20,098 bases of DNA from a virus (lineage: Duplodnaviria; Heunggongvirae; Uroviricota; Caudoviricetes). The stretch lies in IMG/VR virus record IMGVR_UViG_2534681674_000022, positions 1-20,098 of that record; one strand, written 5' to 3'. Position numbers and translations under genes: made by a program. Positions 7,252 through 7,965 of this stretch are shown one piece after another. The notes under the pieces are model-generated. The model did no database searches and had not been told where the DNA came from. It was given only the letters and a program-made list of their open reading frames with translations. The stretch's first letter is position 1; every line of letters begins with the position of its first letter.

Positions 7252-7965
7252 TCAATAATCAAGCCCTTGCCTGGATACATATCTGTCTGGCGGGAAGCCA
7301 TAATAGCGGTGAAATACAGAAATAAAGTAGGACCTGCTTGAATAACCGCATTTTTCTGCTATAGCCTGTCCATATCCATGCCGGGAACATAACATATTTA
7401 CAGCAACACGCATCCGCTCTTCCAGCAACAAGCGACTGAACATGCCCCCTTCATTTTTCAGTTTTGTCTTTAACAAACTCTCACTCATATGCAACTGTAG
7501 AGCAATCGCACCAAGCGTCCAGCTTGCTGATATATCTGTCTGAATTATCGCCCTGACTTTGGCACTTATGCTGGATAAACATCCACTTAAAAACAATGAC
7601 ATCCGTTCATCTGTTTCAAACAGAGACAGGCAGGCCATCATAAGAAACATATCCGTGGCCTCTCCGGAAAATCCCTGGCTGGTAATTAAAGCCGCAGCCA
7701 ACGCAGGATTGTTGGGCTCCAGCAACAGGTAAAGCGGAATGTCAGTCAGACGAGTCCTCGTCAGCTTATGCTGACTTTCCAGATATTGACTTACGACGGA
7801 TTCGCTTATATCGACAATTTTAACTTTGCCATAATGCATAAGGAAAAGCTCCCTGATGCATTTGGTGGCCAGAACGACTGAGCCTGGCTTAAGTGACAAC
7901 GTATCCTTTTCAAGAAAAATATTAATTGGGGAGCAAACCATGATAACTGAACAGACAACAGCCAT
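7252..7965 (-). CDS. AraC-family transcriptional regulator of the AppY/YdeO/GadX type (PatE/Psr-like prophage regulator), 237 aa
   Basis: The N-terminus MAVVCSV...IRELF...KVKIVDI parallels AppY (MDYVCSV...IRREL...LRIVDID). The C-terminus carries an AraC helix-turn-helix signature (IAEKCGYSSRSYFISVFHRYYGFPP). Confidence 0.75.
   Translation of the reverse strand: MAVVCSVIMVCSPINIFLEKDTLSLKPGSVVLATKCIRELFLMHYGKVKIVDISESVVSQYLESQHKLTRTRLTDIPLYLLLEPNNPALAAALITSQGFSGEATDMFLMMACLSLFETDERMSLFLSGCLSSISAKVRAIIQTDISASWTLGAIALQLHMSESLLKTKLKNEGGMFSRLLLEERMRVAVNMLCSRHGYGQAIAEKCGYSSRSYFISVFHRYYGFPPDRYVSRQGLDY

Follow-up and report, generated by a model that had tools for sequence, protein, structure and literature searches.

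PsrA (z1789) and PsrB (z2104) are prophage-encoded regulators that are 90% identical to each other (PMC10877973, PMC8565820), and the group that gave these genes their names assigned psrA, in a 2026 paper, to ecs1087 on the Sakai prophage Sp4 (PMC13502914). PsrB binds at the promoters of hdeA (-132 to -45) and gadE (PMC10877973), and it raises survival at pH 2.5-3.5, as described in reviews (PMC10877973, PMC8565820). Both PsrA and PsrB act on type III secretion as indirect repressors, via GadE and YhiF (PMC10877973, PMC8565820), and a colonisation phenotype has been reported for PsrA (PMC10877973). The published targets of another such regulator, PatE, are hdeA and the gad genes, as for PsrB (PMC10877973). 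In addition, AppY and YdeO of E. coli K-12 both activate gadE and acid resistance, with direct activation of gadE by AppY (PMC10057817).

The stretch of viral DNA analysed here (the window, 20,098 nucleotides) carries at 7252..7965 (-) an intact, uninterrupted ORF with an ATG start, which encodes a 237-residue protein, WP_000301785.1. The first-pass annotation had described it as an AppY/YdeO-like AraC regulator, and this description holds. The C-terminal 100 residues match Pfam HTH_AraC (E 2.4e-13, 50.3 bits vs a cutoff of 26.6) and HTH_18 (39.8 bits vs a cutoff of 33.6), that is, the C-terminal domain of about 100 residues with two helix-turn-helix motifs by which AraC/XylS members are recognised. 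The proposed N-terminal likeness to AppY is real, as the BLASTP alignments with K-12 AppY (28.6% identity over 238 columns) and K-12 YdeO (31.1% over 241 columns) both start at residue 1; the match to EnvY is confined to the DNA-binding domain. The NCBIfam YdeO model (NF007407) spans residues 1-229 of the window protein (E 4e-31), with a score of 108.5 bits that is far under the equivalog cutoff of 348 bits. Together with the 31% identity to K-12 YdeO, this led us to reject YdeO itself and to retain it as a homologue only. The phage protein family PHROG 1450 covers the full length of the protein (E 1.5e-98).

A comparison with Psr, PatE, YdeO and AppY, suggested by the same annotation and run here against the Sakai and K-12 sequences, gave ECs_2191 as the best match, followed by ECs_1087, ECs_0287, YdeO and AppY. 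The window protein shares 234/237 residues (98.7%) with ECs_2191 of Sakai prophage Sp11, and the genes share 708/714 nucleotides. Against ECs_1087 of Sp4 the identity is 90.7% over the full length (215/237, 22 substitutions), and against ECs_0287 of Sp1, the candidate for PatE, it falls to 37% by BLASTP, again from residue 1. The suspected horizontal acquisition of a prophage-borne regulator of the PatE/PsrA/PsrB type is therefore borne out, since the closest homologues are all prophage-borne and none is a chromosomal core AraC regulator.

Several observations point to ECs_2191 as the probable PsrB (Z2104, on OI-57 of EDL933). ECs_1087 and ECs_2191 are 91% identical, as against the published 90% for PsrA and PsrB. 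Sp11 carries nleG2-3, nleG6-2 and nleG5-2, the effectors listed for OI-57 alongside PsrB/z2104. Moreover, the O157:H7 genomes among the matches listed mostly hold two copies of the gene. From its location at the end of Sp1, ECs_0287 is presumably PatE. The window protein has the near-identity to characterised O157 proteins that marks PsrA and PsrB, and it lies in a lambdoid prophage with a linked pch, with late genes and a PerC/Pch gene downstream in the window. The window itself contains no effector gene. In strain 2013C-4974, whose corresponding locus is near-identical, the genes further downstream include those for terminase, portal and head proteins.

Based on these data, the window gene is very probably a functional copy, an allele, of psrB ('prophage-encoded secretion regulator B') on a lambdoid late-region remnant. 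We rejected AppY as its identity on account of the 28.6% identity and a different genomic position, and PatE on account of the 37% identity to its presumed Sakai representative. Judged from these alignments, the window protein is a homologue of YdeO, AppY and PatE, not an orthologue. In RefSeq, WP_000301785.1 is labelled only 'helix-turn-helix domain-containing protein', and the Psr label is absent from the source names returned by the protein homology search and the cluster look-up.

In the original Sakai annotation, both ECs_1087 and ECs_2191 start at Met43 and are 195 residues long. The first 42 residues contain no frame breaks and are conserved in homologues down to 38% identity, and an N-terminal motif, M-x-V-x-C-S (M1, V3, C5, S6), is invariant in 13 homologues. 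The conservation of this segment and its alignment with the N-termini of YdeO, AppY and ECs_0287 support the long form of 237 residues.

The predicted structure of the window protein has an overall pLDDT of 71 (37-75 in the N-domain). For the N-terminal domain the model shows, at low confidence, a small beta sheet with helices, and it places seven helices within residues 133-232. The GadX DNA-binding domain (PDB 3MKL) matches the protein by sequence (E 7e-19) and by fold (Foldseek TM 0.85, rmsd 2.0 A, 43% identity), so that sequence and model both place the predicted DNA-binding domain closest to that of GadX. The full-length Foldseek neighbours are Rns, CsvR and ToxT, but with rmsd values of 14-17 A and TM scores of 0.35-0.40. 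Three substitutions, A103V, H196Y and I202V, separate the window protein from Sakai ECs_2191. In the model, A103V lies in a low-confidence linker, H196Y in the loop following the long central helix, and I202V in the first helix of the second helix-turn-helix; all three fall outside the predicted recognition helices (162-171 and 211-222). The DNA specificity would thus be expected to be that of Sakai PsrB.

The near-identity (98.7%) to PsrB, whose activities are described in the reviews cited above, makes direct activation of gadE and hdeA and indirect repression of the LEE the likely function of the window protein. In the mechanism that we propose, a two-domain AraC/XylS activator of the YdeO/AppY/GadX branch would bind AT-rich sites at the gadE and hdeA promoters through its C-terminal double helix-turn-helix. 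The resulting rise in GadE would switch on the genes of glutamate-dependent acid resistance (AR2) and, in parallel, would indirectly repress the LEE and type III secretion. The gene itself is part of a conserved mobile cassette made up of a terminator, a 65-residue winged-helix ORF, a second terminator, a promoter, psr, the tRNA genes ileZ-argN-argO and a final terminator. In intact phages, this cassette has Q and the late promoter on one side and the nanS-p/lysis genes or stx2 on the other.

The elements of the cassette can be followed on the minus strand of the window. Homology to Sp11 and Sp4 starts, in the alignment, at the T tract of a terminator-like hairpin at 8425..8444 (-), detected by pattern scan (alignment columns 117-150), which forms the upstream edge of the conserved cassette, and continues through the last tRNA with its terminator. 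Next comes an ORF of 65 codons at 8099..8296 (-), WP_000917770.1, which is annotated in 2013C-4974 and O26 11368. Its product is TrmB-like, with a weak Pfam TrmB match under the cutoff (E 0.003), and belongs to PHROG 331 (E 8e-37). This ORF lies directly 5' of psr in every relative inspected (Sp4, Sp11, O26 11368 and the Stx2k phage), and in Sp4 a single nucleotide has been deleted close to its 3' end. A second terminator-like hairpin, GCCTTCAGTCCTGAAGGC followed by a T run, covers its stop codon at 8095..8112 (-). The candidate promoter of psr, a sigma-70-like pattern match found by consensus scan, is located at 8001..8028 (-), 36 nt 5' of the ATG. It reads ATGATA-16 nt-TATAAT, with 10/12 matches and a perfect TATAAT, and the alignment shows no difference in this stretch among the window, Sp11 and Sp4. 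An Rfam search of the psr leader gave no cis-regulatory RNA.

Downstream, the first-pass annotation placed the regulator directly upstream of a phage tRNA array, and three tRNA genes are indeed present on the same strand, the first beginning 28 nt past the psr stop codon. All three were detected by ARAGORN and Rfam: a CAT-anticodon tRNA at 7148..7223 (-), an ileZ-type tRNA-Ile2 that reads ATA (72.5 bits; annotated as tRNA-Ile/ileZ in RefSeq relatives), an argN-type tRNA-Arg (TCG) at 7062..7138 (-; 58.2 bits), and an argO-type tRNA-Arg (TCT) at 6972..7048 (-; 68.9 bits), which reads AGA/AGG. An intrinsic-terminator-like hairpin at 6940..6959 (-), with 8 pairs, 6 of them G-C, followed by TTTTTT, closes the psr-tRNA unit and also appears in the fold of 6920-7260. 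The middle tRNA, argN, is intact in the window (7062-7138) and in Sp4; in Sakai Sp11 it is diverged and unannotated (about 15730-15830 of the Sp11 sequence used). The window thus combines a psrB-type gene with a complete three-tRNA array.

The 28-nt gap between psr and the first tRNA contains no terminator, and co-transcription of psr with the tRNAs is possible; the consensus scan also gave a second promoter-like match at 7262-7234, just 5' of the first tRNA. One could go further and regard the cassette as a self-sufficient unit in which psr would be co-transcribed with ileZ, argN and argO, the tRNAs would supply the decoding of psr's ATA/AGA/AGG codons, and PsrA/PsrB would have a co-regulator or antagonist in the 65-residue winged-helix protein. 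We consider this extended proposal rather doubtful. The codons ATA, AGA and AGG do make up 11/237 of psr, or 46 per 1000, about 7 times the core-gene rate (6.6 per 1000 in 41 Sakai core genes; binomial P 7e-7). However, appY, which has no tRNAs nearby, reaches 96 per 1000, so the excess in psr may reflect only AT-rich foreign DNA, and rare-codon enrichment is weak evidence for a coupling of psr to the tRNAs.

The first-pass annotation had also put the regulator in the position that the antiterminator Q usually takes, before the tRNAs. The intact relatives show that it does not stand in for Q. Sakai Sp4 has the order Q, CAAX protease, small ORF, psrA, ileZ-argN-argO, nanS-p, IS629 and pchA, and Sp11 the order Q, small ORF, psrB, ileZ, argO, TerB, nanS-p, lysis genes and pchB. 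In the prophage of O26:H11 11368, a DUF1133 Q-like protein is followed by the small ORF, a regulator identical to the window protein, three tRNAs, TerB, nanS-p, lysis genes and Pch. Finally, phage phiSTEC1575-Stx2k carries Q, small ORFs, a 'TrmB family' ORF, an AraC protein of 91.6% identity, three tRNAs and stx2AB. In these four elements a Q-type antiterminator lies 0.5-1.7 kb upstream of psr, with the psr cassette between Q and the tRNAs, and we therefore rejected the AraC gene as a Q replacement: psr is an insertion into the Q-to-lysis 'moron' interval. Prophages without the insertion are also found in Sakai. Sp9 and Sp10 have no AraC gene and their tRNAs come directly after Q, while Sp6 has neither an AraC gene nor tRNAs in the interval, the TerB/nanS-p genes coming directly after Q.

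Nor is the arrangement unusual, as had been supposed. The gene is present in 726/5426 complete E. coli genomes, at a median copy number of two, and the segment holding it reaches into the tRNA array in 725 of the 726. The exact sequence of WP_000301785.1 occurs in at least 1000 public contigs. Over the 1.5-kb segment 6900-8400, two complete E. coli genomes match the window at 100% identity, and many O26, O45 and other Shiga-toxin-producing strains at 99.4%. The gene is already known and widespread, it sits in its canonical place, and it teaches no new mechanism.

The Q-to-S interval of lambdoid phages is a classic site of host-directed 'moron' genes. The constancy of the location could nevertheless be read in another way, namely that the regulator mainly serves the phage by controlling the late region, the tRNAs or the timing of lysis, the gad and LEE effects being side effects. 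The invariant late-operon position beside tRNAs in every relative inspected fits such a role, as do the inducible Stx2k phage, in which the cassette lies directly upstream of stx2AB, the membership of the protein in the phage family PHROG 1450, and the AraC homologues of 39% identity that fill the same Q-to-S interval of lambda-like phages without tRNAs. We nonetheless judge a primarily phage-directed role very unlikely. That interval is the usual home of host-directed genes, and the gene is intact in a remnant unable to make phage, among neighbouring phage genes that have decayed. The published direct targets of PsrB are, moreover, the host promoters gadE and hdeA, and PsrA has a colonisation phenotype (PMC10877973). 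A host-directed PsrB thus remains our preferred reading of the window gene.

The decay of the surrounding prophage can be followed in both directions from the cassette. On its upstream side lies an ash-family pseudogene fragment at 8415-8822 (-), which encloses two Rfam matches above the gathering score, the C4 antisense RNA at 8577-8664 (-; 83 bits) and the IsrK Hfq-binding RNA at 8689-8765 (-; 60.5 bits), followed by a Rha fragment at 8931-9152 (-). This IsrK/C4 region seems to be what is left of an antirepressor-control module of the P1/P7 type that came from another phage lineage and was joined to the psr cassette. Past the Rha fragment come a NIPSNAP gene and an IS3-family element at 9578-10887. 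The window holds four IS3-family (IS629-like) copies, at 1-1229, 2573-3886, 9578-10887 and 19703-20098, two of which run off the ends of the window. At the copy at 9578-10887, the prophage remnant meets an unrelated island with a TOTE conflict system, YfjI and an inovirus Gp2-like gene. None of the complete E. coli genomes in the collection covers at least 80% of the window, and this junction may therefore have arisen in the source strain alone, by IS-mediated rearrangement.

Downstream of 6940, the remnant comprises TerB, DUF3927, a split nanS-p-type sialate esterase and lysis-gene fragments cut by an IS3-family element, and further on the PerC/Pch gene, ylcI and another IS. Between the DUF3927 gene and the esterase gene, a full-length Rfam match places the sRNA STnc100 at 6023-6199 (-; 104.7 bits). 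The esterase, a nanS-p-type sialate O-acetylesterase (DUF1737 + SASA + DUF6645) at 4042-5891 (-), is spread over two ORFs that are out of frame with each other (4524-5891 and 4042-4515), and given the single 616-residue protein of 2013C-4974 a frameshift in the window is likely. The pch gene of the same remnant, which encodes a LEE activator of the PerC family, is found at 1682..1936 (-; Pfam PerC, E 5.8e-41). Comparison of its translation with Sakai pchA and pchB reveals 84 residues identical to PchB and then a stop at codon 85/104. In strain 2013C-4974 pch is full length.

Neither a Q antiterminator nor a late promoter is present in the window, Q having gone with the truncation of the prophage upstream of about 8445. 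What is left is an IS-riddled remnant from which Q and everything upstream have been lost, and psr would have to be expressed from its own promoter-like site at 8028-8001. In view of the pch stop, the split nanS-p, the four IS copies and the loss of Q, expression in this host is not guaranteed. The gene might even be a silent passenger, intact by chance in a decaying, H-NS-silenced remnant and inactive in this host. Besides the loss of Q and the late promoter, with only ash/Rha fragments, IsrK/C4 RNAs and an IS upstream, such a view can draw on the stop and the frameshift in the neighbouring pch and nanS-p, and on the G+C content over 7250-8250, which at 0.43-0.45 is below that of the flanks and would be typical of xenogeneically silenced DNA. 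We nevertheless hold silence to be extremely unlikely. Across its 714 bp, psr carries no mutation relative to the 2013C-4974 copy (100% DNA identity), and the intact O26:H11 11368 prophage encodes an identical protein. Furthermore, the 10/12 promoter candidate stands 36 nt upstream in a stretch that is invariant across the paralogues, and for psrA and psrB both expression and regulation from their own context have been published.

Our identification of the gene as a functional psrB allele is above all a gain in annotation. What RefSeq lists as a generic helix-turn-helix protein would be the most common PsrB allele, and through PsrB the prophage content of Shiga-toxin-producing and attaching-effacing E. 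coli is tied to acid resistance and to expression of the LEE. The survival of psr and the tRNAs, both intact in a remnant that lacks Q, lysis genes and part of pch, fits selection for a host-directed function.

Among the described systems, the closest is PsrB/ECs_2191, which has the same length and shares with the window the upstream 65-residue ORF, the promoter region, ileZ and argO, TerB, DUF3927, nanS-p and a linked pch. The window differs in the three substitutions A103V, H196Y and I202V, in an intact argN, which is degenerate in Sp11, in the lack of Q and all early genes, and in its truncated pch. PsrA (Z1789; ECs_1087, Sp4) is 90.7% identical over the full length and has the same cassette, with all three tRNAs and pchA downstream; unlike the window, Sp4 has a CAAX-protease gene between Q and the cassette, and its 65-residue ORF carries the 1-nt deletion. 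PatE (Z0321, OI-8; candidate ECs_0287) is a full-length homologue with the N-terminal motif M-x-x-x-CSV, but at 37% identity, and the candidate gene ends the small cryptic prophage Sp1, with no tRNAs and outside any Q-to-lysis interval. AppY, from the DLP12 prophage of K-12, and YdeO, from the K-12 chromosome, resemble the window protein in their two-domain architecture and align with it from residue 1, whereas appY lies at the far end of DLP12 beside ompT, not near Q or tRNAs.
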